A stretch of 64,000 bases of DNA, from the NCBI GenBank assembly GCA_944392805.1, contig CALXXZ010000006.1, forward strand, positions 21,587 to 85,586, written 5' to 3'. This document shows, in pieces, positions 24,977 to 48,676 of this stretch. Under the pieces are notes generated by a model. The model was given only the letters and a program-made list of their open reading frames with translations, made no database searches and was not told the DNA's origin. A program made the translations under genes and the position numbers. The stretch comes from an uncultured Clostridia bacterium. Its GTDB lineage: Bacteria; Bacillota; Clostridia; TANB77; CAG-508. Numbering within the stretch: position 1 is the first letter of the stretch; the number at the start of each line of letters is the position of its first letter.

Positions 24977-25179
24977 ATAACCTCTCCTATTATAAATTCA
25001 TTCATAATGGCTAATATATCATATATGCAATTTTTTTTCAAGTTATGCCATTCGATTTTTTTCGACATTTTTTATTATACAATACTTTTGTGAATTTAGT
25101 GTGAATTTTTTTACCAGAGTGGCACTCCTTTTTTATCTAAAAAATACCAAAGGAAATAAGTTCCCTCTGGTAAATCTTC

Positions 25180-27783: not shown

Positions 27784-27955
27784 TTTTTCCTCCCTAATTA
27801 AGAATCTTTTGTATTTTATTATATTTTTGTGAACTTTATGTGAAATTTTTATTAATTTTACGTTTATTTTAAAAGATAATACACTTATTTTAAATATTTA
27901 ATTTTTCATGTTTTTTTCTAATTCTTATTGTATAATGATATAAAGGGGGTAACAG

Positions 27956-28423: not shown

Positions 28424-28424
28424 C

Positions 28425-29600
28425 ATGAAAAATACTTTAAAAAATATTGTTGTTTCTATTTCTATAATCTTTCTTGTTTTGACTTTAAGTTATACTCTCA
28501 TGTACAAGTCTTATAGAATAGAACTTATTAAAATTTTTGAAGAAAACTCTGATTTATATATTTCAAATGATACTATATCTTCTGAAGAATATCATACAAC
28601 CTTAAATAATAATATATTCTATATTTTAAATACTTACATAAATTTATTTATAATTTCTACATGTATTGGTACTTTGATTGGTCTATTTCGTTCAGTTAAA
28701 GAACTTTCCATTGTAAAATATATACTTTTCTTTATATTTGGATATTTATTATATAGTACTATTTGGACAGAATTTGTAGTTATTGTGAATAAATGTGTTG
28801 GAAATACATATTTTGATAGATTCGACCTTTTTATGAGTGTAGCTCTTATAATATCAGTTTCTTTTATATTAATATATAGTACAATTGTTGCTGGTATTAT
28901 ATTTCATAATAAACATCAAGTAAAAGAGCTAAATGAAAATTTAAAACAACCTAAACCTGTAAAAGATAGTTTTTGGAAAAAGTTTCATTTAAAAAAGATT
29001 TTAATTTTTACATTAATTATAACTATACTTGTTTTTGTATTTGTAATTGCCAGAAGAACTATTATTTTAATTAATTACTCAAAGAAAATGAATGAGTTGT
29101 ATAATTGTGAAAATTATTATTATAAAGAAACTCAAACATCTTCAAATTATACTAGTAGTTCAGAAAGATGGCGTAAAGATGGTATTATTTTATATAAAAC
29201 TGATACTCTTATTGATTACTTTGATTTAAATAATAAAGAAGGTTTTGCATACTATTTAAAAGATAATACTGTTTCTAAATTTAGTGGTGAAGATTTTAAA
29301 TTTTCTATTGGTCACAATCCTTTTATTAATTTTACTAATCAATTCTTTTATGATACAACTGTAACTTTTTGGAGAACATTTTTCTTATCATTTGATGTTA
29401 GTATTGATGAAGATATATATAGTGGAACCAAATGTTATGTTATTAAACGTGATTTTACCCAACTTTATTTAGATAAAAATACTTATCTACCATTACAAAA
29501 AGTTTATCAGGATAATTTTGGTAATAAAGATATTGAAAATTATTATTATGAATTTGGTAATGTTACCGATTCTGATGTTTCTAAACCTATTTTTGATTAG
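28425..29600 (+). CDS. Membrane protein of unknown function (5-6 transmembrane helices plus extracytoplasmic C-terminal domain), partner of the LytTR gene
   Basis: 391 aa. Its ATG overlaps the LytTR stop (ATGA). Confidence 0.35.
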   Translation: MKNTLKNIVVSISIIFLVLTLSYTLMYKSYRIELIKIFEENSDLYISNDTISSEEYHTTLNNNIFYILNTYINLFIISTCIGTLIGLFRSVKELSIVKYILFFIFGYLLYSTIWTEFVVIVNKCVGNTYFDRFDLFMSVALIISVSFILIYSTIVAGIIFHNKHQVKELNENLKQPKPVKDSFWKKFHLKKILIFTLIITILVFVFVIARRTIILINYSKKMNELYNCENYYYKETQTSSNYTSSSERWRKDGIILYKTDTLIDYFDLNNKEGFAYYLKDNTVSKFSGEDFKFSIGHNPFINFTNQFFYDTTVTFWRTFFLSFDVSIDEDIYSGTKCYVIKRDFTQLYLDKNTYLPLQKVYQDNFGNKDIENYYYEFGNVTDSDVSKPIFD

Positions 29601-29602
29601 CA

Positions 29603-29629
29603 AAAGGAGGCTGCAATGTAGCCTCCTTT
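29603..29629. terminator. Bidirectional hairpin terminator
   Basis: aaaggaggctgcaatgtagcctccttt lies between convergent genes. Confidence 0.6.
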
Positions 29630-29640
29630 GTAGTATATTT

Positions 29641-30270
29641 TTACATACCCTTCAAATCAAACTCTTCTTTTAGAATTGAACCTTCTCTTAGAATATGAGG
29701 TTTTCCATCAATTACTTGTACAATAGTTGAAGCAACACCTATTTTACTCTTTCCTCCATCTATAAAGTAATCAACATTTTCTTTAAAATCTTTCATTATT
29801 ATTTCTAAATCTGTCCCACTTGGTTTTCCAGAAATATTTGCACTTGGTGTTGCTATTGGAACTCCTGCATATTCTATTAATTTTAATGCTGTTTTATTCT
29901 CAGGCATACGAATTCCAACAGTATCTCCATTTGCTGTAAGTATATTAGGTATAATGTCTTTTTTCTTTAATATAATTGTAAATGGACCTGGCATAAATTT
30001 TTTTATTAATTTATATTCTAATTCTGAAATGTTTTGAGTAATCTGTTCTATCATTTCTATACTATTTACTAATAAACTAATTGGTTTATTTAATGGTCTT
30101 TGTTTTACTTCATACAATCTTTTTATTGAATTTTCATTTAATCCATTTGTTCCAATTCCATATACTGTTTCTGTTGGAAACACCACAATTCCACCATTTC
30201 TTATTATTTGAGCAGGCTCTTTTAATTTTGAATAATCTGTTTCATTTCTAAAATCTAAATATTTATTCAT
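29641..30270 (-). CDS. tsaC: L-threonylcarbamoyladenylate synthase (YrdC/Sua5 family)
   Basis: 209 aa. GGIVVFPTETVYGIGTNGLNE is the YrdC signature. It overlaps the upstream ABC-F gene by 8 nt. Confidence 0.8.
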   Translation of the reverse strand: MNKYLDFRNETDYSKLKEPAQIIRNGGIVVFPTETVYGIGTNGLNENSIKRLYEVKQRPLNKPISLLVNSIEMIEQITQNISELEYKLIKKFMPGPFTIILKKKDIIPNILTANGDTVGIRMPENKTALKLIEYAGVPIATPSANISGKPSGTDLEIIMKDFKENVDYFIDGGKSKIGVASTIVQVIDGKPHILREGSILKEEFDLKGM

Positions 30271-32173
30271 TGCTACTTTCCTCTATTTTTTTATTTAATT
30301 CGTCCCATTGGATCATCTGTGTTTCAATTTCTTTATTTAAATTTTGTATTTTATCTTGCAATTCTTTTAATTTTATATAATCTGTACTATTTTCTTCCTT
30401 TAACATTTCTTGCTCAAGCATTTTTATTTCATTTTCTTTTTGTTCAATTTCATTTTCAATTTTATTTACTTTATTTTTCATTTTATTAATTTCTTTATTA
30501 ATAAAATATGAATTATTAACTTTTTTATCTTTTACTTTATTTTCTGTGTTTATTTCTTCAAAAGTACTTTCTTCTCTTTTTTGAAGATATTCTTCATAAG
30601 TTCCATTAAAATATGTAACCTGATTAGGTTCAAATATTAATAATGAATCTGCTATTTTGTTTACAAAATATCTATCATGTGATACAAAAATTATTGTTCC
30701 TTCATATTCTTTAAGTATATTTTCTAAACTTTCTTTTCCTACAATATCCATATGATTTGTCGGTTCGTCTAATAAAAGTAAATTAGGTGTTTTTTTCAAT
30801 ATTTTGCATAATTGAAGTCTACCTTTTTCTCCTCCAGAAAGTACATTTATTTTTTTGAATACATCTTCTCCTGTAAAAAGAAATGTTCCTAAAATTGTTC
30901 TTACTTGTGTTGTTGTAAGCTCAGGAAATTCACTAGCAAATTCATCAAACACAGTATTCTCTGGGTTTGAAAATTCCATCTGTTGGTCAAAATATCCTCT
31001 TTTTACATGATATCCATATTCAAGCTCTCCTCCTAATTTTGGAATATCTCCATTCAATGTTTTTAATAATGTAGATTTTCCTATTCCATTTTCCCCAATT
31101 ATGCCTAATTTTTGACCTTTATATAATTCAAATGATATTTTTTGAATTGGTTGATTATAACCTATTTCTAAATTCTTTACTGATAATACAGTTTTTCCGC
31201 TTTCTGTTTCAATTTTAAAGTTTGCATGAAATGTTTTTAAATCATATTTATTTGGTTCTTCTATAATTGTCATCTGCTCTATTTTCTTTAATTTTGATAA
31301 TGCCATTTTAGCTTTTGTTGGCTTATATCTAAATCTATCTGCAATTGATTTTAATCTTTTTATTTCTGCTTGTTGATATTCATAATCTTTTAATTGTTTT
31401 TCATAGTTTGCCTTTTTTTGTTTTTCAAATTCTGCATAATTTCCTGAATATTCTGTTAATCTTGCATATTCGATTTCATATACTTTATTTACTATTCTGT
31501 CCAAAAACATTCTATCATGCGATACTATTACTACTGCTTTTGGATAATTTCTTAAATAAGTCTCTAACCATTCTATTGCTGAAATATCTAAATGGTTTGT
31601 TGGTTCATCTAATAAAAGAAGTTCCGGCTTACTTAAAAGTAGTTTTAAAAATGCTATTTTAGTTCTTTGGCCTCCAGAGAATTCATTTATTTTTTTATGC
31701 TTGTCTTTTTCAGAAAAACCGAATTTTTTGATGGCTATTTCATATTCTTTTTTATATGTATATCCATCAAGCATTTCAAATCTTTCCATAGAGTTGGTAT
31801 ATTCTTTTATAATTTCTTCACTTGAATCTGTTTGTAATTTTTCTGCTAATCTTGAAATTTTTTCTTCGAGTTTTATTATTGGTTCATATACTTTTAATAT
31901 TTCTTCTAACATTGTGTTGTCTGAATTTTCAAAGTTTATTTGTTTTAAAAATCCAATTTCAATGTTTCCTTGTTTGATTATATTGAATTTTTCTTCACCA
32001 ATTCCTTCTTCTAACATTGAATTGTCTACTAATGAATTTAATAATGTAGTTTTTCCGCTTCCATTTCTCCCTACAATTGCAATTTTATCTTTTTCTTTTA
32101 TTTCAAAATTTATTTCTTCTATTATTGTTTCTGCTCCAAATGTAATTGAGCCATTTGTTATTTTATAATTCAT
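30263..32173 (-). CDS. ABC-F family ATPase (tandem ABC domains, no transmembrane segment; ribosome-associated translation factor class)
   Basis: 636 aa. Two sets of Walker A (GRNGSGKTT / GENGIGKST), signature (FSGGQRTK / LSGGEKGR) and Walker B (LLLLDEPTNHLD x2) are present, with an inter-domain linker and a C-terminal coiled-coil. Confidence 0.8.
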   Translation of the reverse strand: MNYKITNGSITFGAETIIEEINFEIKEKDKIAIVGRNGSGKTTLLNSLVDNSMLEEGIGEEKFNIIKQGNIEIGFLKQINFENSDNTMLEEILKVYEPIIKLEEKISRLAEKLQTDSSEEIIKEYTNSMERFEMLDGYTYKKEYEIAIKKFGFSEKDKHKKINEFSGGQRTKIAFLKLLLSKPELLLLDEPTNHLDISAIEWLETYLRNYPKAVVIVSHDRMFLDRIVNKVYEIEYARLTEYSGNYAEFEKQKKANYEKQLKDYEYQQAEIKRLKSIADRFRYKPTKAKMALSKLKKIEQMTIIEEPNKYDLKTFHANFKIETESGKTVLSVKNLEIGYNQPIQKISFELYKGQKLGIIGENGIGKSTLLKTLNGDIPKLGGELEYGYHVKRGYFDQQMEFSNPENTVFDEFASEFPELTTTQVRTILGTFLFTGEDVFKKINVLSGGEKGRLQLCKILKKTPNLLLLDEPTNHMDIVGKESLENILKEYEGTIIFVSHDRYFVNKIADSLLIFEPNQVTYFNGTYEEYLQKREESTFEEINTENKVKDKKVNNSYFINKEINKMKNKVNKIENEIEQKENEIKMLEQEMLKEENSTDYIKLKELQDKIQNLNKEIETQMIQWDELNKKIEESSNE

Positions 32174-32237: not shown

Positions 32238-32642
32238 TTATTGTTTTCTATCCATGTTCATACATGTTCCATCATTCATGTAGAATTTCTTTTCTGCTAA
32301 TTTGTCTTGTACTCCTCTTAATGCTTCTCCAAATCTTTGAAAATGTACTATTTCTCTTTCTCTTAAGAATCTTAATGGATCTATTACATCTGGGTTGTCT
32401 CTACACAAATCTATTAATTTTTCATAAGTTGCTCTTGCTTTTTGCTCTGCTGCTAAGTCTTCTTGTAAGTTTGCTATTGCATCACCTTTACATGCTATAT
32501 ATGCTGCTGTAAATGGCATTCCTGCTGCTGATTGTGGATATACATCAACACCATGGTCTGTATAATATGGTCCTAATCCTGCTGCTTCTATTTCTTCTAT
32601 TGATGCTCCTTTTGTCAATTGATGAACTATTGCCCCAATCAT
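32238..32642 (-). pseudogene. cotJC: Spore coat protein CotJC (Mn-catalase family), C-terminal fragment (attB-distal half of a split gene)
   Basis: 134 aa from an internal Met. The in-frame upstream codons GTKELAHLE continue the CotJC sequence. ...LAHLEMIGAIVHQLTKGAS...AAGLGPYYTDHG...AAEQKARATYEKLIDL...LRFLREREIVHFQRF matches the CotJC/Mn-catalase C-terminal half. A stop lies immediately upstream at the insertion junction. Confidence 0.8.
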
Positions 32643-32678
32643 TTCTAAGTGAGCTAATTCTTTAGTACCATGTTCTTA

Positions 32679-34577
32679 TCAATCAATTTCAATAGCACCA
32701 GTATATAATCCATAATAAGTACCTTTTTTAGCAATTAATTCATTATGATTTCCTCTTTCAATAATTCTACCGTGGTCTAAAACCATAATTAAATCTGAAT
32801 TTCTAATAGTAGACAATCTATGTGCTATAACAAAAACAGTTCTTCCTTTCATTAATTTATCCATTCCTTCTTGAACTATTTTTTCTGTTCTTGTATCAAT
32901 ACTTGATGTAGCCTCATCTAATATTAAAACTGGTGGATTATTTAGTGCTGCTCTTGCAATAGATAATAGCTGTCTTTGTCCTTGAGATAAGCCTTCCCCA
33001 TTTCCTGTAATCATAGTATCATAACCTTGTGGTAAGTTTTTAATGAATTTATCTGCATTAGAAAGTTTTGCTGCTTCATAAACTTCTTCATCTGTTGCAT
33101 CTAATTTTCCATATCTGATGTTATCTTTTATAGTTCCTGTAAATAAACTAGTATCTTGTAAAACCATTCCTAAAGATCTTCTTAAGTCATCTTTTTTGAT
33201 TTTTCTGATATTGATTCTATCATAACGTATTTTTCCTTCTTGAATATCATAGAAACGATTTATTAAATTTGTAATTGTAGTCTTACCTGCCCCTGTTGCT
33301 CCAACAAATGAAACCTTTTGCCCCTCTTTTGCTGATAAAGTGATATCATGTAATATTCTTTTATTTTCTTCATAGCCAAATTGAACATTTTCAAATTCAA
33401 CTTGACCACGCAATCTTGTATATGTAATTCTTCCATCTTGATGTGGATGTTTCCAAGCCCATATTCCTGTTCTTTCTTTTGACTCTACGATTTTTCCATT
33501 TTCCATTTTAGCATTTACTAATGTAACATATCCTTCATCAATTTCTACTTCTTCGTCTATTAAGTCAAATATTCTTTCTGCTCCCGCTAATGCCATAACT
33601 ATGAAATTCATTTGTTGTGACACTTGACCTAATGGGTTTGTAAATGCTTTTACAAATTGTAAAAATGCTGCTATACTTCCTATTGTTAATATTCCATTAA
33701 CTGATAGCATTCCTCCTATTACTGCTACTAATACATATCCTAAATTACCAATATTCATTATACATGGCATTAAGATATTAGCATACATATTTGCTTTTGC
33801 ATTACTATCACATAAGTTTTCATTTAATTCATCAAATTTATTTTTAGATTGTTCTTCATAATTAAATACTTTAACAACTTTTTGACCTTCCATCATTTCT
33901 TCTATATATCCATCCATTTTCCCCAGGTCTTCTTGTTGTTTTACGAAATATCTTGAACTGTTTCCACCTAAATATTTAGATACAAATATCATTATAATCA
34001 TCATTGCAACAACTACTAATGTTAAATATATATTTGTAGTAAACATAGATATTAAAATTGTTACCATAGATACAATTGCTGAAAATACTTGTGGTATACT
34101 TTGGCTAAGCATTTCTCTTAAGCTATCTACATCATTTGTATAAATACTCATTATTTCCCCATGTGGTCTACTATCAAAATATATAATAGGTAATTTTTGC
34201 ATATGATTGAATAATTGTTTACGTATTTTATTTAATATTCCTTGAGATATGTTTATCATTAATCTATTATAAATGTATGTAGCTATTACTCCAACTAAAT
34301 ATATTAATGCCATTGTCATTATAACATTAAATAATGCTGTATAATCAGGATTTTGACTTCCTAGAAGTGGAGTAATAAAATCATCTATTAAATATTTAAT
34401 AAATTCAATACCAGCTACTCCTACTAATGAACTTATAATAATACTTATTAAAACAATAGCTAATTGTAATTTATAAGTTGTAAATACATATCCCAAAAGT
34501 CTTTTTATTGTAGCCCATTTTGTTCTTTTCTTTTTATTCTCCATCTTCTTCGTCATCTCCTTTCTTTTGAGATTCAT
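32679..34577 (-). CDS. ABC exporter, fused permease/ATPase (type I exporter, heterodimer partner B)
   Basis: 632 aa. An N-terminal six-transmembrane domain and a C-terminal NBD carry GATGAGKTT, LSQGQRQLLSIARA and ILDEATSSID. Confidence 0.8.
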   Translation of the reverse strand: MNLKRKEMTKKMENKKKRTKWATIKRLLGYVFTTYKLQLAIVLISIIISSLVGVAGIEFIKYLIDDFITPLLGSQNPDYTALFNVIMTMALIYLVGVIATYIYNRLMINISQGILNKIRKQLFNHMQKLPIIYFDSRPHGEIMSIYTNDVDSLREMLSQSIPQVFSAIVSMVTILISMFTTNIYLTLVVVAMMIIMIFVSKYLGGNSSRYFVKQQEDLGKMDGYIEEMMEGQKVVKVFNYEEQSKNKFDELNENLCDSNAKANMYANILMPCIMNIGNLGYVLVAVIGGMLSVNGILTIGSIAAFLQFVKAFTNPLGQVSQQMNFIVMALAGAERIFDLIDEEVEIDEGYVTLVNAKMENGKIVESKERTGIWAWKHPHQDGRITYTRLRGQVEFENVQFGYEENKRILHDITLSAKEGQKVSFVGATGAGKTTITNLINRFYDIQEGKIRYDRINIRKIKKDDLRRSLGMVLQDTSLFTGTIKDNIRYGKLDATDEEVYEAAKLSNADKFIKNLPQGYDTMITGNGEGLSQGQRQLLSIARAALNNPPVLILDEATSSIDTRTEKIVQEGMDKLMKGRTVFVIAHRLSTIRNSDLIMVLDHGRIIERGNHNELIAKKGTYYGLYTGAIEID

Positions 34578-36315
34578 ATACTTCTTTATAAATTTCGTTT
34601 GTCTTTAATAATTCTTCTGATGTTCCTATTCCATCAATTTCTCCATCATTTAATACAATAATTCTATCTGCATCTTCTATTGATGTTACTCTTTGTGCAA
34701 TTATTATTTTTGTTGTGTTTGGTATTTCTTCTCTAAATGCTTTTCTAATTAAACTATCTGTTTTTGTGTCTACTGCACTTGTAGAGTCATCTAATATTAG
34801 GATTTTTGGTTTTTTTAGTATTGCTCTTGCAATACATATTCTTTGTTTTTGACCTCCTGATACATTTGTTCCACCTTGATCTAAAACTGTTTCATATTTT
34901 GAAGGAAATTCTTGTATAAATCCATCTGCTTGTGCTAATTTACATGCATTTTCTAGTTCTTCTAGGTCTGCATTTTTCTTTCCCCAACGTAGATTTTCTG
35001 CAATTGTTCCAGAAAATAATACATTTTTCTGTAATACCATTGCTACTGAATCTCTTAATGCATGTATATCATAATCTTTTACATTAACTCCTCCTACTTG
35101 AATTTCACCTTTTGTTGCATCATAAAGTCTTGGTATTAATTGTACTAATGTTGATTTTGAACTTCCTGTTCCTCCTATTATTCCTATTGTTTCTCCTTCT
35201 TTTATTTCTAAATCGATATTTTTTAATGCAAATTTATTTTTATCTTCTTCATCACTATAACAGAAACTAACATTTTTAAATGTTATTGAACCATTTTTTA
35301 CTTCTTTAACAGGGTTTTCTGGATTTTTCAAACTTGGTTCTTCTTCTATTACTTCCATTATTCTTTCTGCTGATGATTGTGAAATGATAATCATTACAAA
35401 TACCATTGAAAGCATCATTAAACTTGATAATATTTGCCATGCATATGTAATTATACTTGATAGTTGCCCTGTTTGCATGCTTCCTCCAACTATTAGTTTT
35501 GAACCGAACCATGATATTAATAAAATACATGTATAAATTGTTAATTGCATTACAGGACTATTAAATGCTACTATTTTTTGAGCTTTTATGAAGTTTTTAT
35601 ATACTTCATCATTTACTTCTTTGAATTTTGCTTCTTCTGTGTCTTCACGCACATATGCTTTTACAACTCTTATTGCGTTTAGATTTTCTTGTACTACTCT
35701 ATTTAATTTGTCATATTTTTTGAATACTTTTTCGAAAATAGGATGTGCTTTTGTTGCTATTAAAAATAAAATAACTCCTAAGAATGGAATTGCAACTAAA
35801 AAGATTAAAGATAATTTACCACTAATTGATAATACCATTAAAAGTGCAAATATCATCATTATAGGTCCTCTTACTAATATACGTATTATCATTTGAAATG
35901 CCATTTGTACATTTGTTACATCTGTTGTCATTCTTGTTACTAAACTTGATGTTGAGAATTTATCTATATTTTCAAATGCATAATCTTGTACTTTATGAAA
36001 CATTTCTTTTCTTAGATTTTTAGCATATCCTGCTGAAGCTATTGCTGCAAATCTTCCTGATAACATTCCAAAAATTAATGACATTATTGCTGATATTATT
36101 AATAATATTCCCATCTTCAAAATGTAGTCAATATCACTGTTTTGAATTCCGACATCTATTATTCTTGCCATAAGAAGTGGTATAATAACTTCCATTATAA
36201 CTTCTAATACAACAAATATAGGTGTAAGTATTGCTTGTTTTTTGTACTCTTTAACATAACTTGCTAGTTTTTTTATCATTTTTTCTCCTTCCTTTCTTTT
36301 TAACATTAGTCTCAA
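34534..36315 (-). CDS. ABC exporter, fused permease/ATPase (heterodimer partner A)
   Basis: 593 aa. NBD motifs GGTGSSKST, VSGGQKQRICIARA and ILDDSTSAVD are present. It overlaps its partner gene by 44 nt. Confidence 0.8.
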   Translation of the reverse strand: MRLMLKRKEGEKMIKKLASYVKEYKKQAILTPIFVVLEVIMEVIIPLLMARIIDVGIQNSDIDYILKMGILLIISAIMSLIFGMLSGRFAAIASAGYAKNLRKEMFHKVQDYAFENIDKFSTSSLVTRMTTDVTNVQMAFQMIIRILVRGPIMMIFALLMVLSISGKLSLIFLVAIPFLGVILFLIATKAHPIFEKVFKKYDKLNRVVQENLNAIRVVKAYVREDTEEAKFKEVNDEVYKNFIKAQKIVAFNSPVMQLTIYTCILLISWFGSKLIVGGSMQTGQLSSIITYAWQILSSLMMLSMVFVMIIISQSSAERIMEVIEEEPSLKNPENPVKEVKNGSITFKNVSFCYSDEEDKNKFALKNIDLEIKEGETIGIIGGTGSSKSTLVQLIPRLYDATKGEIQVGGVNVKDYDIHALRDSVAMVLQKNVLFSGTIAENLRWGKKNADLEELENACKLAQADGFIQEFPSKYETVLDQGGTNVSGGQKQRICIARAILKKPKILILDDSTSAVDTKTDSLIRKAFREEIPNTTKIIIAQRVTSIEDADRIIVLNDGEIDGIGTSEELLKTNEIYKEVYESQKKGDDEEDGE

Positions 36316-36388: not shown

Positions 36389-36498
36389 ATGCAAATTCAC
36401 CTTTTATCAAATAAAAATTTTTGGAAAAAATTTTTAATGATTTTTGTAAATATTTAAAATTAAAAAGGAGACAATAATTTTTGATGGAGGTGAAAAAA

Positions 36499-38481: not shown

Positions 38482-38753
38482 CAGTCATACAATTACAAAA
38501 TAATTGTATGACTGCCCTATTCTTTCATATCTATTTTATCAATTTTCGGATATCAATATTAGGTATTTTTTTATTCCGTGCTCATAAATTTTATAGAGGC
38601 GATTTTTATGATATTAGAAGAATATACCCTAGAAAATACAAAAATAAAATTTTACGATGATTATATAGTTAAGAATATTGATACTCAAAAAGAATATATA
38701 AATAATGTTATTATAAATTTGATAAGAAAATCCTTTTCATGAAAGGAGAAATT

Positions 38754-40301
38754 ATGCAAGATGGCACATATGCAATATATCTAAGAAAATCTAGAGAAGA
38801 TATTGAAGCTGAAAAATATGGTGAAGGCGAAACTTTAGCAAGACATGAAAAAATTTTAACTACTTTAGCCGAAAAGCGAAATCTACCCATTTCAAGAATT
38901 TATAAAGAAGTTGTAAGTGGCGAAACAATCAGTGAAAGAAAAGAAATGCAAAAACTTTTAAAAGATGTTGAAAATGAGAAATGGACTGGTATTTTAGTTG
39001 TTGAAGTAGAAAGACTTGCTCGTGGCGATACTGCTGATCAAGGTATAGTTGCAAAAGCCTTCAAATATTCACATACAAAAATTATCACTCCTATGAAAAT
39101 ATATGACCCTGACAATGAATTTGATGAAGAATATTTTGAATTTGGTCTATTTATGTCTAGAAGAGAATATAAAACTATAAATAGACGTTTACAAAGAGGA
39201 CGTGAACTCTCAGTTCAAGAAGGTAAATTTGTTGGAAATATTGCTCCATTTGGCTATGATAGATTAAAACTAAAAGATTCAAAAGGATATACCCTATCTA
39301 TAAATCAAGATGAAGCACTTATAGTTAAAGAAATTTTTAGATTATATGCTTTTGAAAATGCGACTTTAAATTCAGTTGCACAACAGCTAAATGATCTAAA
39401 TTTGAAACCTAGAATTGCAAATGAATGGACAATTTCTTCTGTTAAAGATATTCTTTCTAATCCTACCTATATTGGTAAAATTGCATGGAATAGAAGAAAA
39501 CAAAAAAAGAAAACCAAAAATGGAAATATTATCATTACTAGACCTCGTAACACAGAGTTTTTAATTTATGATGGATTACATGAACCTATTATTGATAATA
39601 AAACTTGGATTATAGTTCAGGAAAAAAGAAAACAAAATACTCCTAAAATAAAACATAGCAATACTATTCAAAATCCATTAGTAGGACTCGTTTTTTGTGA
39701 AAAATGTGGCAAGCTAATGCAAAGGCGACCTTATTCAAAAGATGGTAAGCCTGCAACTTTAATTTGTTCTAATCCAAAGTGTGATAATGTAAGTTCTAAA
39801 CTTTATATTGTTGAAAATAAAATTATCGAATCATTAAAAATATGGCTTAAAAATTTTAAAATAAATTATGATTTTAAAAATAACTCAAGTTTCAATAATG
39901 AAATAATTGAAAAATCTATTGTTTCAACTCAAAAAGAACTAAAAAAAGAAAATTTGAAGCTTGATAAAGTTTATGTGTTTTTAGAAAATGGATTGTATAA
40001 TAGTGATGAGTTTATTAATCGTTCAAAAATTATAAAAAATAATATTGAAAGTTTAGAAATTAAATTAAATAAATATAATTCTTTATTACAACAAAATTTA
40101 GAAGATCAAAAAAATACTACAATACCAAGTTTAGAAAATGTTATGGATTTATATTATAAACTAGAGACTGCTGGAGATAAAAATGCTTTTCTAAAGTGTT
40201 TACTTTCAAAAGTTACATATTTGAAAACAAAAAAGTCTATAAAAAAGGATTCTGACCCAACTAATTTTGAATTACATTTATATCCTAAAATATTAATCTA
40301 A
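38754..40301 (+). CDS. Large serine recombinase (resolvase/invertase catalytic domain + recombinase domain + zinc ribbon + coiled-coil)
   Basis: N-terminus MQDGTYAIYLRKSRED carries the catalytic Ser, and ...VVEVERLARGD is resolvase-like. Zn ribbon CEKCG...CSNPKC and a C-terminal coiled-coil follow. AAAGGAG lies 6 nt before ATG 38754. Confidence 0.85.
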   Translation: MQDGTYAIYLRKSREDIEAEKYGEGETLARHEKILTTLAEKRNLPISRIYKEVVSGETISERKEMQKLLKDVENEKWTGILVVEVERLARGDTADQGIVAKAFKYSHTKIITPMKIYDPDNEFDEEYFEFGLFMSRREYKTINRRLQRGRELSVQEGKFVGNIAPFGYDRLKLKDSKGYTLSINQDEALIVKEIFRLYAFENATLNSVAQQLNDLNLKPRIANEWTISSVKDILSNPTYIGKIAWNRRKQKKKTKNGNIIITRPRNTEFLIYDGLHEPIIDNKTWIIVQEKRKQNTPKIKHSNTIQNPLVGLVFCEKCGKLMQRRPYSKDGKPATLICSNPKCDNVSSKLYIVENKIIESLKIWLKNFKINYDFKNNSSFNNEIIEKSIVSTQKELKKENLKLDKVYVFLENGLYNSDEFINRSKIIKNNIESLEIKLNKYNSLLQQNLEDQKNTTIPSLENVMDLYYKLETAGDKNAFLKCLLSKVTYLKTKKSIKKDSDPTNFELHLYPKILI

Positions 40302-41060: not shown

Positions 41061-41201
41061 TATAGTAGATATAAAATATCTACTACTATTATATTCATTA
41101 TACACACTTTTTATTAATATTTCAAGATTTATTTACAAATTAATTGAAAAAATTTTGGAAATTCACTAAATATGTTTTAATGTCTCTAGCTATTGACAAC
41201 A

Positions 41202-41408
41202 TCATGATACCCATTCTTCAGTACCAATATCATTTAATATAGCTTTTGCATTTTGGTCAGGCATACCAAATCTTTGAGACAAATATCTTAAAGAAGCCGC
41301 AAGTTCACCATCAGGACCTCCATATTGAGAAATTATTACTTTTGCAAGACGAGGGTCTGTGCATTTAATATTAACCGGATATTGTAGCATTTTATTATAA
41401 GTCCACAT
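41202..41408 (-). pseudogene. cotJC: Spore coat protein CotJC, N-terminal fragment (65 native codons + 3 element-encoded codons), with native ribosome-binding site
   Basis: MWTYNKMLQYPVNIKCTDPRLAKVIISQYGGPDGELAASLRYLSQRFGMPDQNAKAILNDIGTEE matches the CotJC N-terminus (B. subtilis MWVYEKKLQYPVKVS...LLTDIGTEE). It is followed by WVS-stop from the insertion. AAGGGGGAA lies 8 nt upstream of the ATG. Confidence 0.8.
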
Positions 41409-41472
41409 TTAAAAATTCCCCCTTTCCCAAGGCCACCCTTGGTTCAATATGGAGGAATTTTTTATAATTGTT

Positions 41473-43057
41473 TCATGCAGAAATATCAAATTTATACTTT
41501 ATATTGACATTTCTATCATCTATAACAATTCTATCAATTAACTTAAAAGCTAAACTTACATTTTCATCATTCAATTCATTAAGGTCTAAAATTTCTTTTA
41601 TTAAATCTCTATTATTTTTTCTTACATTAGCACTCTCTATTTTCTTTATTTCATATCTTTTTATCTCAATTTCTAATTGTTGTTTTTGACTTTCATATTT
41701 TTTTATAAGGTTTGAAAAAGTATCTTGTGAGATTATTTTAGCTATTTTATCTTCATATAAGTTACTTATTAATTTATTAACTTCTCGTTTTTTATTTTGA
41801 ATATTCATAATATCATTTTCATCATTTTCTTTATTTTGGATACCGTTTAAATTGCAAATCTGAAATATTTAAGAATTTTTGTATATTATTTTTTAATGAC
41901 CTTCTAACGATTTCTATTAATTCATCTTCTCTTATGTGGACACCTTCGCAAAAGTTTTTTCCATATTTTTTATAATTTGAACACACACATCTAAAATATC
42001 TGCCATGATTTTTATTATATGTAATTTTACTACCACATTTACAATAAACTAAGCCTGTTAATAAATGTCTTTTTCTATTAGAATAATTCCATTCATTTGT
42101 CTGTTTTTCTAGCATTTCTTGTACAGTATTATAAACTGCTCTACTTATTATAGCAGGATAATTATTTTCTACTATCACTTGTTTATCTGGAGATACTTTT
42201 TCAGTTTTTTGTATCTTATAATTTATTTTTTTAGATTTCAGTTGAATTAAATCTCCCACATAGCTTCTATCTCTCAATATCTTATTAATAATTGTAGAAT
42301 TCCATTTATATGTACAATTCTGTTTTGCATTTGGATTATAATAATTTGTTGTGTCTTGCTTATGTTGTAATGGTGTTTTTATTCCCCACTCATTAAACTT
42401 ATTTGCAATTTGTGTTTTTGAATTTCCTGACATATATAAATCAAAAATCTTTCTTACATTATCAGCAACTTCTTCATCTATTAATATATTATTTTTATTG
42501 TGTATATCTTTTTTCAAGCCATATGGTAAAAATGGTTTTATACATTCTCCTGCATTTGCTTTTGTAGTAATTACTGTTCTTACTTTATTTGAAATATCTT
42601 TTGCATACATATCATTAAATACTGCTTTAAACGGTGTTATATCGCTACTAAAATTATTTATATCAAATGTATCTATATTATCATTGACTGCGATATATCT
42701 TACTCTTTTTTCTGGAAAGTATTTCTCTAAAAATCGTCCTGTTTCTATGTAATCCCTTCCTAATCTTGATAAGTCTTTTGTAATAACTAAATTGATTATT
42801 CCATTTTCTATGTCTTTTATCATTCTCTGAAAAGCTGGTCTATTAAAATTTGTTCCAGTATAGCCATCGTCTGAATAAATGTCTATTAAATTCCATTTCA
42901 TTTTTAATACGACATTTTTTAAGAATTTAATCTGATTTTCAATACTTTCTGATTGACTTTTATATTTTGCTTCTTTCTCATCTTCTCTTGATAGCCTTAC
43001 ATATATGGCCACTTTCCATGTACCTTCTTCTACTAAATAGTTATCTGACTCATACAT
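41473..43057 (-). pseudogene. Second large serine recombinase, interrupted by a stop plus +1 frameshift (408-aa + 111-aa ORFs); probably inactivated
   Basis: 43057..41831 encodes the catalytic domain (AIYVRLSREDEKEAKY...), the recombinase domain and a zinc ribbon (CKCGSK...CVCSNYKKYGKNFC). 41808..41473 encodes the C-terminal coiled-coil expected in the same protein. The two are out of frame and 22 nt apart. The gene ends 64 bp from the cotJC ATG. Confidence 0.65.
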
Positions 43058-43457
43058 ACTTCCCTCCTATCTTGAGTCTATAACTACTTTTCTATTGTTC
43101 TTGAAATAAAAAAATAATTATTTTCATCAATCCAACTTTGAATTAAGTCCAATAATTTCTTCCCATCTTTTGTATATGTTTCTGTTATATTTTCATTCAA
43201 TGTAATCACCTCAATACAGTATATGCATTGGCAGTAAAAAATAGTTAAGAAATGGTTTCTTAGCTATTTTTTTGAATTGAATATAATATTTATGAATATA
43301 TTTTATATTAATTTTTTGATTATGTCTACTCTATTTTTTTACCTTTTTTTATCTTTATGTTATTTTCTGCCAAAATTTCCTATAATATTCAAGGTTGAAT
43401 TTTTAGTTTTTTATTGATACAATTCCAAAAAATAAAATTTTTAAAGGAGATATTGTT

Positions 43458-44003
43458 TTGGAAGAACTAATAAAAAATACATTGAATGGTGATAAGCATT
43501 CTTTTGAAGTTTTAATTGATTCTGTAGAAAGCGACTTATATCGTGTTGCACAAGCTAAACTTAGTAATATTGATGATATAAATGATGCTATTCAAGAAAC
43601 AATTACTAAAGCTTATTCTAAACTACATACTTTAAAGAAATCGAAATATTTTAGAACTTGGATTATAAAAATTTTGATTAATGAATGTAATGTTATTTAC
43701 AGAAAGAAGTATAAGCAAGCTAAAATTTTTAATAAATTATCTATTTCTAAAATTACTGATGAGGTTACTAATCCTTTTAATATTGTGGAAGATAAAATTG
43801 ATTTTGATATTTTACTTAAACATTTAAACGAAAAAGAACAATTAATTTTAGCTTTATATTTTAATAGTAAATTTATTCCTGATGAAATATCTGATATTTT
43901 GGGCATTAATGTAAATACTGTTAAAAGTATAATTTATAGAGCTAAAGAAAAACTTAAAAAATTTGTGGAAAAGGAGGAATTAGATAATGAATCAAGAAAA
44001 TAA
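43458..44003 (+). CDS. ECF-type sigma-70 family RNA polymerase sigma factor (paralog 1 of 3)
   Basis: 181 aa. Region 2 (DDINDAIQETITKAYSKL...WIIKILINECN) and region 4 (ISDILGINVNTVKSIIYRAKEKL) are present. TTG start with AAAGGAGA ribosome-binding site. Confidence 0.7.
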   Translation: MEELIKNTLNGDKHSFEVLIDSVESDLYRVAQAKLSNIDDINDAIQETITKAYSKLHTLKKSKYFRTWIIKILINECNVIYRKKYKQAKIFNKLSISKITDEVTNPFNIVEDKIDFDILLKHLNEKEQLILALYFNSKFIPDEISDILGINVNTVKSIIYRAKEKLKKFVEKEELDNESRK

Positions 44004-45045
44004 TGATAACTTAGATAAATTTTTATTTGATGCATATGAAAAAAATAAAGATATTCCTCTTTCTACTCAGAATATTATTGATAATACTATTGATAATTTA
44101 TTTGCTGAGAAAAATGTTAAACATAAAAAATCTTTTAATTTTGTACTAAAAAGAGTTGCTGTTTTGGTAATTTCACTTAGTGTCGTTACAGCTTCTACCG
44201 TTTTTGCTAAGGATATTATTAATTTCTTTACTTCGATTTTTACTAATAGCAATAAAGGCGTAGATACTGCTGTTGAAAATGGCTATGTGCAAAATGTGGA
44301 TATGGATTTTATTGAAGATAATAATTTGGGTGTTAAAGTTGATTATGTGCTTATGGATGACCACAATCTTAATATTTCATTTGTATATAAATACTTGGGT
44401 GATGATGTTTCTCAAATTACTGGGTTGAATTATATGGATTTAACTATTAAGGATGAAAATGAGAATGTTTTATATAGGTCTTCTAAAGATAATCAAAATG
44501 ATAATATGGTAAGTAATATTACAAAATACACAAACAATCAACAAATTATAGATAACACTACAATTAGAAGTTCTTTATTAGCTGCTTCTAATAATTTTCC
44601 AAAATCGGAAATGTTGTATATTTCAATAAATAATATATCTTTAAATAGTAATGATGAACTTATAAATGTTAATGGTAATTGGAATTTCTCAATAAATTTA
44701 GCTGATAAATTTATATATAGAACTAGTTATAAATATAATTGTAGTGATAATAAATATATTAACAATATAGAAACTTTACTTACAGACACTTCTTTAAAGA
44801 TCACTTTACAATTAAATACACCTTTTAATAAAAATATGATTTATTTGTACAATTCTATTATTTTAAAAGACGTTGATAATAAAGTATATTCTTATACTGA
44901 AATGTCAAGTAAAAATACCTCTGATTCAACTAGTTCAATTACATTATTTTATCCAATTACAATTTATGATACAAATATTGATAAATTATTTTTACATATT
45001 GATTTAGATACAGATAAAAGTATTGATATAGAATTATTAAAATGA
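43987..45045 (+). CDS. Putative anti-sigma factor: short cytoplasmic N-terminus, single transmembrane helix, large Asn/Ser-rich extracytoplasmic domain
   Basis: 352 aa. It overlaps the sigma gene by 17 nt. Transmembrane helix RVAVLVISLSVVTASTVFA. A terminator follows at 45050-45075 (gaggcatcaccaagatgcctctttt). Confidence 0.45.
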   Translation: MNQENNDNLDKFLFDAYEKNKDIPLSTQNIIDNTIDNLFAEKNVKHKKSFNFVLKRVAVLVISLSVVTASTVFAKDIINFFTSIFTNSNKGVDTAVENGYVQNVDMDFIEDNNLGVKVDYVLMDDHNLNISFVYKYLGDDVSQITGLNYMDLTIKDENENVLYRSSKDNQNDNMVSNITKYTNNQQIIDNTTIRSSLLAASNNFPKSEMLYISINNISLNSNDELINVNGNWNFSINLADKFIYRTSYKYNCSDNKYINNIETLLTDTSLKITLQLNTPFNKNMIYLYNSIILKDVDNKVYSYTEMSSKNTSDSTSSITLFYPITIYDTNIDKLFLHIDLDTDKSIDIELLK

Positions 45046-45134
45046 GAGGCATCACCAAGATGCCTCTTTTACAAGAAAATGATTCAATCAAATTAAATTA
45101 TTTACAGCTTCTCATTTAAATCTTTAGACGCATT

Positions 45135-45671
45135 TCAGCCCCATGTATCGAAATACATACATACTCTTAAATTAGAACTGCTACCAGTTACAAGGTAATA
45201 CTTGAAATAATATGTCCTATTAGGGACAATCTTTACATTAGGTACTGTTATTGCAGTACCATCCGCTGTTGCTGTAGCAATAACTAAACAATTATTATTG
45301 TAATCCCACAGCTCCGCAGAAACTTGTTTATTTGGATAGGAATTTCCATCCGCTCCAATTACCTCAAGGGTAAAATTGAGATAATTGCCACTATATTTTC
45401 TATCAGCACCACGGTAGTAGTTTCCTTTCATCGTAAAACATGACTGTATTAAATAGGTTCCTACACCATTTTCATCGACACTTTCCGGTGTCAACTCCAT
45501 TTCGTACGTTGTCCGTGTCTTTCCATTATCCAGTTTTTCGACTGAAACAATTTTTCCATTTGGATTTTCATTGTCAGCCTCGGCTGCAAGAGATACCATA
45601 GAAAAATTAGAAAAGCCCATCAACATAGCCATTACAAAAGCAACAATCCGATTTCTTTTTTTGGTCAACAT
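45135..45671 (-). CDS. Secreted protein of unknown function with clearly higher GC than its surroundings (likely horizontally acquired)
   Basis: 178 aa. Signal peptide MLTKKRNRIVAFVMAMLMGFSNFSMVSLAAEA. The coding sequence is roughly 38-40% GC against a ~25% background, with codon usage using C/G third positions. Confidence 0.5.
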   Translation of the reverse strand: MLTKKRNRIVAFVMAMLMGFSNFSMVSLAAEADNENPNGKIVSVEKLDNGKTRTTYEMELTPESVDENGVGTYLIQSCFTMKGNYYRGADRKYSGNYLNFTLEVIGADGNSYPNKQVSAELWDYNNNCLVIATATADGTAITVPNVKIVPNRTYYFKYYLVTGSSSNLRVCMYFDTWG

Positions 45672-45948
45672 ACATTTTCCTCCTTATTCTAGACCCAATT
45701 AAATCATTTTCCTGCTAAACCAATAAGTTACAGTTTGAAATTTATCTTAAACTTAACTATTGATTTCAAGTTATTACTTGTTTTGTACAGTTTCGTACAT
45801 TTCTTGGTAATTTTAGCACAAAAAGTTACAAAAAATAAAAAAAGGTAAAAAAAGATAAATATTTTTTACTTTTTTTCGACATTTTTTTAATATTTTGCAT
45901 TCGAATATCATTTTTTCGCATCTAATGTTTGGGAGATGGAAGGAAAAA

Positions 45949-46668
45949 ATGTTAAATTTACTTATTATTGATAAAGATGTTAATCATTCTATGAAATTAC
46001 TTAATGAATTTTCAAAAAATGCTGAAATTAAAGTATATAATGTTACTAGCACATTATTAGATGGAATTAAACTTTTAAATACTGGTATTATAGACATAAC
46101 TATAATAAATCTTAATTGTACAATTGATGAAATTACTAATGCTTTTAAACTAATTTCGAAATCATATATTGAAAAATACAACAAATCTATGATTGTATTG
46201 TCTAGTAAGGTTAGCAAATTGACTTCAAATGATTTTGTATACAGTTTTATTGATGATACTGAAGATATTTCAAAAATTTATATTAAAACTTGTGAAATAG
46301 TTGAAAACAAGTTTTATAAAATAAATAAAATTGATTTACTTACTAAGATAAATAAAGAATTAGAATATATTGGTTACAATATGTCCTATAATGGAACAAA
46401 ATACTTATCTGAATGTATTGCGCTAATTTATAGTAGTCATGATTATAGTGAAAATTTGAACAAAAACATTTATCCTGTTATTGCTAAAAAATATAATAAA
46501 ACTATCAATAATGTTAAGTGTAGTATCACTTGTGCAACTACTTCTATGTTTTATGATTGTGATGAAACTAGATTAAAAAATTATTTTAATTTTTATACTG
46601 TTATTAAGCCAAAACCTAAAGTCGTTATTTATACGATATTGAATAAAATTTATAATATAAAGTGCTAG
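45949..46668 (+). CDS. Spo0A-like protein: degenerate receiver domain (phospho-acceptor Asp replaced by Asn) + Spo0A C-terminal DNA-binding domain
   Basis: The C-terminal ...NIYPVIAKKYNKTINNVKCSITCATTSMF aligns to the Spo0A_C helix-turn-helix region ([26 protein letters not shown]). The N-terminal ~110 aa have a receiver-like pattern (IIDKD...ITIINLN...MIVLSS) but Asn sits at the Asp56 position. The start was chosen at 45949 after GGAAGGA. Confidence 0.5.
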   Translation: MLNLLIIDKDVNHSMKLLNEFSKNAEIKVYNVTSTLLDGIKLLNTGIIDITIINLNCTIDEITNAFKLISKSYIEKYNKSMIVLSSKVSKLTSNDFVYSFIDDTEDISKIYIKTCEIVENKFYKINKIDLLTKINKELEYIGYNMSYNGTKYLSECIALIYSSHDYSENLNKNIYPVIAKKYNKTINNVKCSITCATTSMFYDCDETRLKNYFNFYTVIKPKPKVVIYTILNKIYNIKC

Positions 46669-46747
46669 TACAAAAAATAGAAGAATATCAATAGTTAGAA
46701 AAAACTATTGATATTCTTCTTTAATAATCATGGATAATTGTATAAAT

Positions 46748-47755
46748 TTAAAAATAAAATCCAACACACAAATTTTCTTTAAATTCATTACTTAATTCTA
46801 TTTGATTTAGTTTTACATTCATGTTATATGATGATATTTCCATATTTGAATATGTATTATAAATATAATCTTGTACTTTTTCATTATTACATCTAGTTTG
46901 GTCTAAATAAACCCTATATTCATTTTCTATATATTGTATATCAAAAATACTCATTGAATAATCTATTTTATCTTGTACTCTAACAATTCTAATAAAATCT
47001 TCTTTATTATTTTTTGTATTTTCTACAAATTGTTCTATTCTAAATTTATTATCAGAAATCACTTCCGAATTATAAATTACAACACAATTATCTAAAACGG
47101 CTTGTTCTTTTGAATAATCTTTTGGAAGTTCCTCTAATGGTACATAACCATCTGATTTAGGTATTTTTTTTGCTCTATCAACATGAATCTCATCTCTATC
47201 TAATGTATTACTAATTTTTACTGACAAAATTTCTTTTTGGCTCTCATTTTCATTATCTCTATCTATTTCTACATATAATATTTTGTCATCAGTTTCTATA
47301 TTAGAAACATAAATACCAGGCATATATGGACTTGTTGATATTATAATTAGCAAAAAGTTATCTTTAAAATCTTCTTCTGTCATTTCAATTAAATTACTCA
47401 TGTTTTCTTTATATTTTAAATAATCATTAAAATTAGTTATTTTCTTATAATAAAATCTATTCATATATTCCATATCTTCTTTATAATCATAACTATAATT
47501 TGATACTGCAGTTTTTTGCGTAAAATATTCATATGCTGTTGTAAGTCCATATACTAATCCTGAAGTCCCTAAAAGTACTAATATTATTGTGATAGTACTT
47601 GTTAATAATTTTCTTATTTTATAATTGATTTCATTCTTTTGCTTTGTCTTTAATGTATAATCAATCCTATGTTCAATCTGTTGTGGTATTATAGTGTCTT
47701 TTTTACTTAAATCTTTTAATACTTCTTCAATTTCTTTCATACAATTCACCTCCAT
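46748..47755 (-). CDS. Putative anti-sigma factor (single transmembrane helix, extracytoplasmic domain), partner of sigma paralog 2
   Basis: 335 aa. Transmembrane helix LLTSTITIILVLLGTSGLVYGL. It overlaps the sigma gene by 29 nt. Confidence 0.4.
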   Translation of the reverse strand: MEVNCMKEIEEVLKDLSKKDTIIPQQIEHRIDYTLKTKQKNEINYKIRKLLTSTITIILVLLGTSGLVYGLTTAYEYFTQKTAVSNYSYDYKEDMEYMNRFYYKKITNFNDYLKYKENMSNLIEMTEEDFKDNFLLIIISTSPYMPGIYVSNIETDDKILYVEIDRDNENESQKEILSVKISNTLDRDEIHVDRAKKIPKSDGYVPLEELPKDYSKEQAVLDNCVVIYNSEVISDNKFRIEQFVENTKNNKEDFIRIVRVQDKIDYSMSIFDIQYIENEYRVYLDQTRCNNEKVQDYIYNTYSNMEISSYNMNVKLNQIELSNEFKENLCVGFYF

Positions 47756-48275
47756 ATTCTTGTCTTAATTTATCTTTCGCCCTTCTTATTTTAGTTTTGA
47801 TAGTATTTTCATTTTTCCTCATAATATGACCTATCTCTTTTGTTGTATATCCTGAATAATAGTATAAAGTTAAAATTGTTTGTTCATCAGGTGATAAATT
47901 TTTTATAAACATTTCAAAGTCTATTTTTTCTAAATTATCTTCTACTTCAATATACTTGTCCATTTCATTTTCTTCAATTGAAATATTGTATTTTTTCTTT
48001 TTATTATAAATATTATTGCATTTACTTATTAGTATTTTTATTAACCATGGTTTAAATACTTTATCATTTTTTAGTTTTCGGATATTTTTATAACAAGTTA
48101 ATATTGTATCTTGTATTGCATCTGCTATATCATCCATATCATTAAGTCTTGTCCTTGCTATACAGTACAAGTCACTTTTTATAGAATTTATTAATTCATC
48201 AAATGCTTCATCATCTTCTTTGGCTTTTTTCACTAATTCTTCCAATTTTAGTTCCTCCATTTTTAATATGTACAT
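47727..48275 (-). CDS. ECF-type sigma-70 family sigma factor (paralog 2 of 3)
   Basis: 182 aa. It shares DDI.DAIQ.T...WLIKILI.KCN and region-4 motifs with the other two paralogs. It begins 8 bp after the cotJB stop. Confidence 0.7.
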   Translation of the reverse strand: MYILKMEELKLEELVKKAKEDDEAFDELINSIKSDLYCIARTRLNDMDDIADAIQDTILTCYKNIRKLKNDKVFKPWLIKILISKCNNIYNKKKKYNISIEENEMDKYIEVEDNLEKIDFEMFIKNLSPDEQTILTLYYYSGYTTKEIGHIMRKNENTIKTKIRRAKDKLRQEYGGELYERN

Positions 48276-48283
48276 ATTTATAC

Positions 48284-48676
48284 TTATAAGACCGCCAATA
48301 GGTTATTATTAGTTTCAAAAATATCAAATTTTACATCTAAACAAAACGAACCCCATGGTTCTTCAAGCCATCTCCATTTATTACATGGAAATTGAATAGT
48401 CAATGGTCCATAAACTTTTTGATATTTATCTGTTAATTCTCTGTATTCTTTACTATATTTTCTATGCAAGCATAAAGCTTTTTCATCTTCAGGATGAGTG
48501 TCTAGATATAAAGCCAATTCGGTAATAGCAAAATTCAAGCATTTTATTCTTTCCATCATTTCTTCTCTAGTTTGATCATAATTGCAATCATTATTTGGCA
48601 TAGGATTATTAGTCATATACATTGAATAATTATTATTCATCATACAATTGCAATTTCTATTATCCATTTCGTTCAT
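48284..48676 (-). CDS. cotJB: Spore coat protein CotJB
   Basis: 130 aa. FAITELALYLDTHPEDEKALCLHRKYSKEYRELTDKYQKVYGPLT matches the CotJB domain (..L.LYLDTHP.D..AL..Y.....EL...Y...YGPL). An Asn/Met-rich N-terminal extension is present. Confidence 0.75.
   Translation of the reverse strand: MNEMDNRNCNCMMNNNYSMYMTNNPMPNNDCNYDQTREEMMERIKCLNFAITELALYLDTHPEDEKALCLHRKYSKEYRELTDKYQKVYGPLTIQFPCNKWRWLEEPWGSFCLDVKFDIFETNNNLLAVL

Follow-up and report, generated by a model that had tools for sequence, protein, structure and literature searches.

Among the described elements that interrupt sporulation genes, those closest to the one analysed here are skinCd, gin and SPβ. The skinCd element of Clostridioides difficile is inserted in sigK and has the recombinase CD1231 and a directionality factor of 72 aa, CD1234; its attL and attR sites share a 12-bp motif, which is the site of recombination and lies between 22-bp imperfect inverted repeats (PMC5025042). 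The gene for CD1234 is controlled by σE/SpoIIID, with a transcription start that lies 14 bp upstream from its start codon (PMC5025042). In Bacillus cereus ATCC 10987, gerE is interrupted by gin, a non-prophage intervening element with the proteins GirC and GirX, whose att sites combine a consensus of 9 bp with an imperfect inverted repeat of 27 bp; the predicted cleavage is at the centre of the attP-like site, and GirX, the directionality factor, has 42 aa and no conserved motif (PMC5595907). In Bacillus subtilis, the SprA/SprB system of SPβ acts in spsM, a spore-envelope gene that is rebuilt during sporulation (PMC4191935, PMC5499854). In this literature, the experimentally characterized split genes are sigK, spsM, spoVFB, spoVR, gerE and yabG, whereas the coat gene cotJC appears only in lists: as an insertion site in Abe et al. 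2013, as cited in bioRxiv 10.1101/2021.11.22.469490, and as the site of a skin-like element in Laceyella sacchari (bioRxiv 10.1101/2022.02.25.481979).

The stretch of DNA analysed here, referred to as the window, comprises 64,000 nucleotides from an uncultured Clostridia bacterium and holds cotJC on the minus strand, in two parts. At the two ends of the DNA that separates these parts, the initial annotation had recognized imperfect 14-bp direct repeats and had proposed them as att cores. Both copies are there, ATTCTTTAGTACCA at 32657-32670 and ATTCTTCAGTACCA at 41213-41226 on the plus strand, spaced by 8,556 bp, and the bases that follow them differ as described (catg on the left and caat on the right, i.e., cca/tg and cca/at at the repeat boundary). 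When the 64-kb window was searched for ATTCTTYAGTACCA with at most one mismatch, two matches were found, both of them the 14-mers, against a chance expectation of 0.07; shuffled sequence never gave two. Very probably, the repeats represent attL and attR cores that belong to a non-phage element of 8,556 bp (E1) that was inserted by a large serine recombinase (LSR1) in codon 65 of cotJC, an assignment supported by the junctions at base level, by the conservation of the repeat in 34/34 loci and by the architecture of attP, each of which is described below.

The 5′ part of cotJC is a 68-codon open reading frame (41408..41202) that covers positions 1-66 of the Mn_catalase profile, with the translation ...NDIGTEEWVS*, and the 3′ part, an open reading frame at 32642..32238 whose frame is open upstream to 32670, covers profile positions 72-197 and reads ...HGTKELAHLEMIGA.... 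Intact cotJABC loci of related metagenomic genomes (L002, L004 and L005), with CotJC 93-94% identical, served as the reference for the junctions. Alignment to these loci gave the boundaries at single-base resolution: the 5′ part ceases to be homologous after TGGTACTGAAGAAT and the 3′ part is homologous from TGGTACTAAAGAAT onward, so that the repeat is the overlap of the two cotJC fragments and is present as a single copy in intact genes. The 5′ part thus consists of codons 1 to 65 (first base) at 41216..41408 on the minus strand, and the 3′ part runs from inside codon 65 to the stop at 32238..32659, also on the minus strand. The repeat copy at 41213..41226 (minus strand; TGGTACTGAAGAAT on the gene strand) forms the junction between the 5′ part and the element, the attL core, and the copy at 32657..32670 (minus strand; TGGTACTAAAGAAT on the gene strand) forms the junction between the element and the 3′ part, the attR core in gene orientation.

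Relatives of LSR1 are numerous, and the best 120 protein clusters listed are all 79-97% identical to it. From a one-genome-per-species collection, 197 stretches were confirmed by tblastn, placing the family in at least 197 species-level genomes, with variable cargo. The best 80 of these 197 loci were kept, all from uncultured Clostridia genomes assembled from metagenomes, with record names that suggest samples from mice, rabbits, chickens and Hadza humans. In the contexts examined, the recombinase lies beside a cotJC 5′ fragment of 65-68 residues, followed by cotJB and cotJA; LSR1 adjoins the 5′-part junction in every locus examined, with a CptIN module intervening in the window. The 5′-part junction was found in 70 of the fetched loci, the 3′-part junction in 47 and both in 39, and the split point, at codons G62-T-E-E65, is common to all of them. 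The elements range from 3.2 to 11.1 kb and differ in cargo. For the comparison of att sites, a set of 34 non-redundant species-level loci with both junctions readable was used, and far from being absent from related genomes that carry the element, the repeat, GG(T/A)AC(N)GAAGAAT on the gene strand, flanks the related elements in all 34, which belong to different species.

The circle junction, attP, was reconstructed by joining the element-side sequences of both junctions. It is 48 bp long and consists of 24-bp inverted arms, with the consensus TTGACAACATCATGGAACAGAAG followed by AATGAGTACCATGATGTTGTCAA. Its best dyad centre lies between repeat positions 10 and 11, the same point in all 34 non-redundant loci; around this centre a mean of 17.6 of 24 positions are complementary (16 of 24 in the window), any other centre gives 9.3 or fewer, and beyond 24 bp on either side the complementarity is lost. 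In none of the 34 loci are the central G and A self-complementary, i.e., the centre is non-palindromic. An attP with a 48-bp dyad around a non-palindromic centre is the standard design for a large serine recombinase, and the weak symmetry of the reconstructed attB is usual for these enzymes. In the window, the element-side arms are located at 32660..32683 (the left half of attP in gene orientation, overlapping the stop codon of an ABC transporter gene) and at 41192..41215 (the right half, an inverted repeat of 32660-32683). The imperfect inverted repeats that the initial annotation had suggested looking for at the junctions were not found inside either of them to any notable extent, since one arm lies at each end of the element and the two pair only in attP. 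Likewise, the GTAC that had been noticed in the core as a dyad exists in the sequence, but it belongs to the inverted arms of attP (GGTAC...GTACC) and is not the crossover dyad. In most loci of the family (e.g., L006, L008 and L011), the outer part of the right arm of attP, TCAATAGCTAAAG, also pairs with CTTAGCTATTGA about 15 nt inward, forming a hairpin just inside the junction, between the recombinase gene and the 5′-part junction of cotJC; the window is without this CTTAGCTATTGA partner and has the CptIN module in its place.

The variation between attL and attR in the 34 non-redundant loci narrows the position of the crossover. The two sites vary at positions 3, 6, 7 and 13 of the repeat and agree at the five positions of AAGAA (8-12) in 34, 33, 34, 34 and 34 of 34 loci; GAA at positions 10-12 is identical in every one of the 34 attL/attR pairs, and in one locus (L086) the shared run is GAAT alone. 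Position 7 is G in all 34 copies at the 5′ part and A in six copies at the 3′ part, that of the window included, so the A is element-derived. At position 13 of the 3′-part copy, a change from T to C occurs together with a change of the Leu codon from TTA to CTT, and this co-variation marks the C as gene-derived. The origins of positions 7 and 13 together place the crossover within G10-A11-A12, and the dyad centre selects GA, so that the crossover dinucleotide is inferred to be GA on the gene strand, 3′ of the mismatch. In the window, the predicted GA (TC on the plus strand) corresponds to the first two bases of the Glu65 codon at 32659..32660 and to 41215..41216 at the other junction, on the minus strand in both cases. 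Recombination anywhere inside the repeat, as initially suggested, is thereby replaced by a single 2-bp site within AAGAA, as a large serine recombinase uses one such site. The predicted joints are GATATTGGTACTGAAGAATTAGCTCACTTAG for attB and GAACATGGTACTAAAGAATGGGTATCATGATG for attP, and a joint reading ...ACTAAAGAATTAGC... (Lys) would place the crossover 5′ of the mismatch. The existence of the repeat itself is explained by the resemblance of attP to cotJC over about 10 bp left of the crossover and 2-3 bp right of it.

The element between the repeats carries genes for a pair of ABC exporters, a surface protein of the beta-helix type, a class B sortase, a 44-aa protein, LSR1 and a CptIN toxin. 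None of its genes is for phage structure, packaging or lysis, so that E1 does not qualify as a prophage, and it contains no transposase. The recombinase LSR1 is encoded on the plus strand at 38754..40301 (515 aa), from an ATG that has AAGGAG in front of it; translation from another ATG, at 38739, would give 520 aa. Three domains score above the gathering threshold, PF00239 (Resolvase, residues 12-163), PF07508 (Recombinase, 191-300) and PF13408 (Zn_ribbon_recom, 313-366), and the protein matches the integrase family phrog_95 with 3.9e-92. Its closest solved structure is SprA (YokA) of SPβ (E = 8e-47), aligned over residues 14-512, and its dN/dS against the family is 0.18. Apart from the frame for the 44-aa protein, the remaining genes are cargo: the two ABC exporter genes on the minus strand (32679-34577 and 34534-36315, together 32679..36315), the beta-helix surface protein gene (36481-37623) and the sortase gene (37666-38481) on the plus strand, and on the minus strand a type III toxin gene of the CptIN family at 40401-40883 (NF047359, 155 bits against a cutoff of 90). 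Upstream of the toxin gene, a 48-nt unit is repeated 2.2 times in tandem (40954-41057, minus strand), presumably as the antitoxin RNA of the toxin; the toxin-associated repeats have no match in Rfam, and the module as a whole has none in Rfam or PADLOC.

Excision at the predicted crossover would remove 8,556 bp and yield ...DIGTEELAHLEM..., with E rather than K, because a crossover at GA, 3′ of the mismatch, gives GTEE and not GTKE. Of the two products initially allowed, GTEE and GTKE, the first is predicted and the second is not, since the A of the Lys codon belongs to the element-derived copy in attP. The sequence DIGTEELAHLE is present in 118 of 120 intact homologues, and D(I/V)GTEELAHLE spans the junction in the 22 reconstituted reading frames that were aligned, most of which have DIGTEELAHLEM. 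Joined in silico, the CotJC of the window has 204 aa and shares 93-94% identity with intact homologues, the alignments covering 99-100% of it; the in-frame reconstitution foreseen in the initial annotation is thus supported by colinearity across the junction both with intact homologues and with Mn catalases. A conserved E-x-x-H, which would be rebuilt at the junction, aligns with the metal-binding motif of Mn catalases. In that family this motif, just 3′ of the crossover, supplies metal ligands, and neither fragment of cotJC should therefore be active alone.

Both halves of the split gene are under purifying selection, with dN/dS values across element-carrying species of 0.09 (5′ part) and 0.15 (3′ part), dS being ~1, although some of this selection could date from before the insertion or reflect recent insertions instead of long-term reconstitution. 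The divergence of LSR1 is uncorrelated with that of the host cotJ genes (Spearman -0.015), which implies that the elements move between species and makes the argument that cotJC was long maintained while split weaker than dN/dS alone suggests. In B. subtilis, cotJ is expressed in the mother cell.

A conserved open reading frame of 44 aa lies directly upstream of LSR1 (38608..38742, plus strand) and is the candidate for a recombination directionality factor. Such a frame, of 44-47 aa, precedes the recombinase in 74 of 76 loci, and the family alignment has 13 invariant columns; matches were found neither in Pfam, NCBIfam, PHROGs and PADLOC nor among PDB sequences, including the SprA-SprB (YotN) fusion chain. 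About 25 nt upstream of it, the family-conserved box CATAAATT is located at 38583..38590 on the plus strand, the TCATAAATTT box ahead of the start codon being fully conserved in the family, and a terminator-like hairpin (38482-38514) precedes the box. It resembles the CATA-type -10 element of mother-cell sigma factors, as in the B. subtilis consensus, and CATAAATT, a short motif, is possibly such an element. If skinCd, SPβ and gin are taken as a guide, the 44-aa protein is probably the directionality factor needed for excision, and excision of E1 probably takes place in the sporulating mother cell. The proposed sequence of events would be that dimers of LSR1 bind the arms of attP and cut at the central non-palindromic GA; in the sporulating cell, the 44-aa protein, made specifically in the mother cell, would switch LSR1 to recombination of attL with attR. 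Recombination at GA would then release E1 as a circle and rebuild ...DIGTEELAHLEM... in cotJC, bringing back E-x-x-H.

The cotJ operon of the window is interrupted a second time. The element E2, about 6,920 bp (41434..48354, minus strand), is inserted in the 3′ end of cotJB, 7 codons ahead of the stop, with TGG core copies at 41433-41435 and 48353-48355. The operon consists of cotJA (48676-49035), cotJB (48284-48676) and cotJC, all on the minus strand and belonging to PF11007, PF12652 and PF05067, and the 3′ end of cotJB is replaced by element sequence, so that the intact C-terminus ...EEPWPWEGGNF* reads ...EEPWGSFCLD... in the window. Because E2 parts cotJC from cotJB and cotJA, excising E1 alone would give an intact cotJC frame and not an intact operon. 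The recombinase of E2, LSR2 (41473-43057), is frameshifted after about residue 405, a defect seen in three independent assemblies. A mismatch of CC versus GG in the core of E2, considered as a sign of decay, was rejected on finding the same arm combination in four species, and a gene call in L011 (12128-13993) that fuses LSR2 with the 5′ part of cotJC in a 621-aa protein proved to be an annotation artefact, as a TGA stop lies between the two. The cargo of E2 includes a sigma-70-family gene with a DUF4179 partner (within 43458-48275), a protein of 257 aa that has the C-terminal DNA-binding domain of Spo0A (45895-46668), and an ECF-type sigma gene (47727-48275) whose partner, of 335 aa, is unannotated (46748-47755), i.e., regulators that are carried on a mobile element within a sporulation operon. 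It was also observed that the cotJ operon of the window is oriented oppositely to that of the intact loci L002, L003 and L005 relative to conserved neighbouring genes, which encode a BcrAD/BadFG-domain protein of 1,436 aa and an ABC/FtsX protein of 867 aa (20666-32173 in the window, 1-5200 in L002/L005), and that L011 and L005 differ in cotJ orientation relative to pyruvate kinase.

Such multiple occupancy extends to the relatives. The cotJB site of E2 is occupied in 12 of the 64 loci in which the end of cotJB and the start of cotJC could be read, and cotJC is broken at no fewer than two further points, codons ~97-102 in eight loci (L013, L023, L026, L030, L031, L037, L047 and L085) and codons ~133-137 in five (L029, L036, L051, L062 and L070). 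The recombinases at these further breaks, where their DNA is available, are separate ones, about 33% identical to LSR2, and L023 and L030 have three recombinase elements in one cotJ operon. A tentative extension of these observations would be that, in this low-GC lineage of uncultured gut Clostridia, the cotJ operon is a developmental switch with several locks, all elements being removed in the mother cell so that CotJB and CotJC can be made. Such a switch would involve at least four unrelated serine-recombinase families at the 3′ end of cotJB and at cotJC codons 62-65, ~100 and ~135, with up to three elements per operon; in the window, E2 would have lost its key, so that either a recombinase acts in trans or the switch has been caught failing.

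Whether the copy of E1 in the window still excises is a question to which the observations speak on both sides. The predicted attP junction was absent from JGI metagenome contigs (searched with two patterns), from IMG/VR and from the 91 fetched loci, and the exact reconstituted CotJC, in its E and K versions, was absent from a collection of 15 billion proteins, which records for this species the split CotJC fragments alone, on 2-4 contigs. Four positions that are near-invariant in the family (-9, -6, -4 and +19) are changed in the attP arms of the window, of which the arm at 32660..32683 has three changed from the family consensus, so that this copy of E1 could be impaired. The window is 99.8% identical over 13.3 kb to a second contig (L001), and 20 of the 26 differences between them cluster in the 3′ third of LSR1 (39750-40300), giving 14 amino-acid changes, all in residues 342-513, with a local dN/dS of about 0.74; this cluster may be a recombination patch, a region of relaxed constraint or the product of strain mixing in a low-coverage assembly.

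From these data, a system in decay can be constructed, with att sites that are real, an E1 that no longer excises or does so pointlessly and a cotJ operon on its way to becoming a pseudogene. It would account for the frameshift in LSR2, seen in all three assemblies, which leaves cotJB truncated and cotJC separated from its partners by 6.9 kb, for the arm substitutions at positions with 88-97% conservation among family members, for the confined changes in LSR1 with their raised dN/dS and for the failure to find an empty site or an excision product of this species in the protein look-up. It is nevertheless unlikely, because LSR1 and the small frame are full length, the reading frames are intact in both cotJC fragments, in cotJA and in most of cotJB, and the two copies do not differ in AAGAA, at the crossover; some arm variants, TTGATAAC among them, are also seen in further loci whose sites are normal in other respects, and E2 could be excised in trans by a recombinase encoded at another place in the genome.

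A different consideration is that E1 is a horizontally mobile cargo island which lands in the conserved cotJC, excises for transfer and whose host tolerates the loss of CotJC. The uncorrelated divergence of LSR1 and cotJ, the stronger conservation of LSR1 than of the host coat proteins, the variable cargo with toxin-antitoxin and defence-like genes, and the fact that the nearest named relatives of LSR1 are integrases of temperate phages, at about 46% identity, would all be expected of such an island. We regard it as rather improbable, since at least four recombinase families occupy four points of one sporulation operon, which argues for selection of the operon rather than chance, and since strong purifying selection acts on the two halves of split cotJC. 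Moreover, the recombinase module keeps the small frame behind a terminator and with its own conserved upstream box, and the studied elements of such design all excise during sporulation (PMC5025042, PMC5595907, PMC4191935). The identity of the att cores is the same under either reading. That the repeats are a transposase target-site duplication, as a cut-and-paste transposon with its short direct repeats would leave, or a chance match, is vanishingly improbable and is refuted by the junctions, the 34-locus conservation and the attP dyad: E1 lacks a transposase, the repeat is not a perfect one, it is conserved in sequence and position across 34 species and does not vary with the target, intact genes hold one copy's worth, and the element ends form a 48-bp palindromic attP of the recombinase type.

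The assignment of the repeats as att cores of an excisable E1 provides base-level predictions for a widespread and experimentally unstudied recombinase family, namely its attB, its 48-bp attP, the GA crossover and a candidate 44-aa factor. Developmentally excised elements that interrupt genes, so far described in a few cultured Bacilli and Clostridia, would thereby be extended to a large group of uncultured spore formers of the gut and to a coat gene that published lists merely mention. In such genomes, a split cotJC or cotJB should be checked for att sites before it is called a pseudogene. Well-defined pairs of large serine recombinases and their att sites are also raw material for genome-engineering tools.

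Compared with the described systems, E1 resembles skinCd in that an element with a large serine recombinase splits a sporulation gene, presumably also one of the mother cell, with a short motif shared by the att sites and a small element-encoded protein, in E1 a candidate directionality factor; it differs in its target, cotJC instead of sigK, and in its small frame, which has 44-47 aa, lies directly upstream of the recombinase and shows no detected similarity to known factors. The likeness to gin is one of design, as the smallest members of the E1 family (3.2 kb) contain little beyond the recombinase and the small frame, whereas the host lineage and the target gene are others, and the E1 family spans at least 197 species-level genomes with variable cargo. 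SPβ provides, in SprA, the closest solved structure to LSR1, but it is a full and active prophage, while E1 is without phage genes and its small frame shows no similarity to SprB (YotN). The listed interruptions of cotJC share the target gene and concern phage- or transposon-related elements in spore formers; they are catalogue-level mentions from Bacilli, whereas the E1 family is found in Clostridia, and no account of att sites, a recombinase family, the Clostridia lineage or multi-site occupancy was found for them. More distantly, the heterocyst elements of Anabaena (fdxN with XisF) are excised developmentally in a terminally differentiating cell and offer an analogy with E1 and E2, in another phylum and another developmental program; the scores of LSR1 (about 90 bits) and LSR2 (about 86 bits) against the XisF model are far below its threshold of 375. 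In Anabaena, several excision elements can interrupt different genes of one developmental program. In every testable feature, E1 fits the known intervening elements of sporulation genes, and what is new here is the target site, a recombinase family that is very widespread and whose att sites are defined, and a lineage that has been hit repeatedly in one operon.
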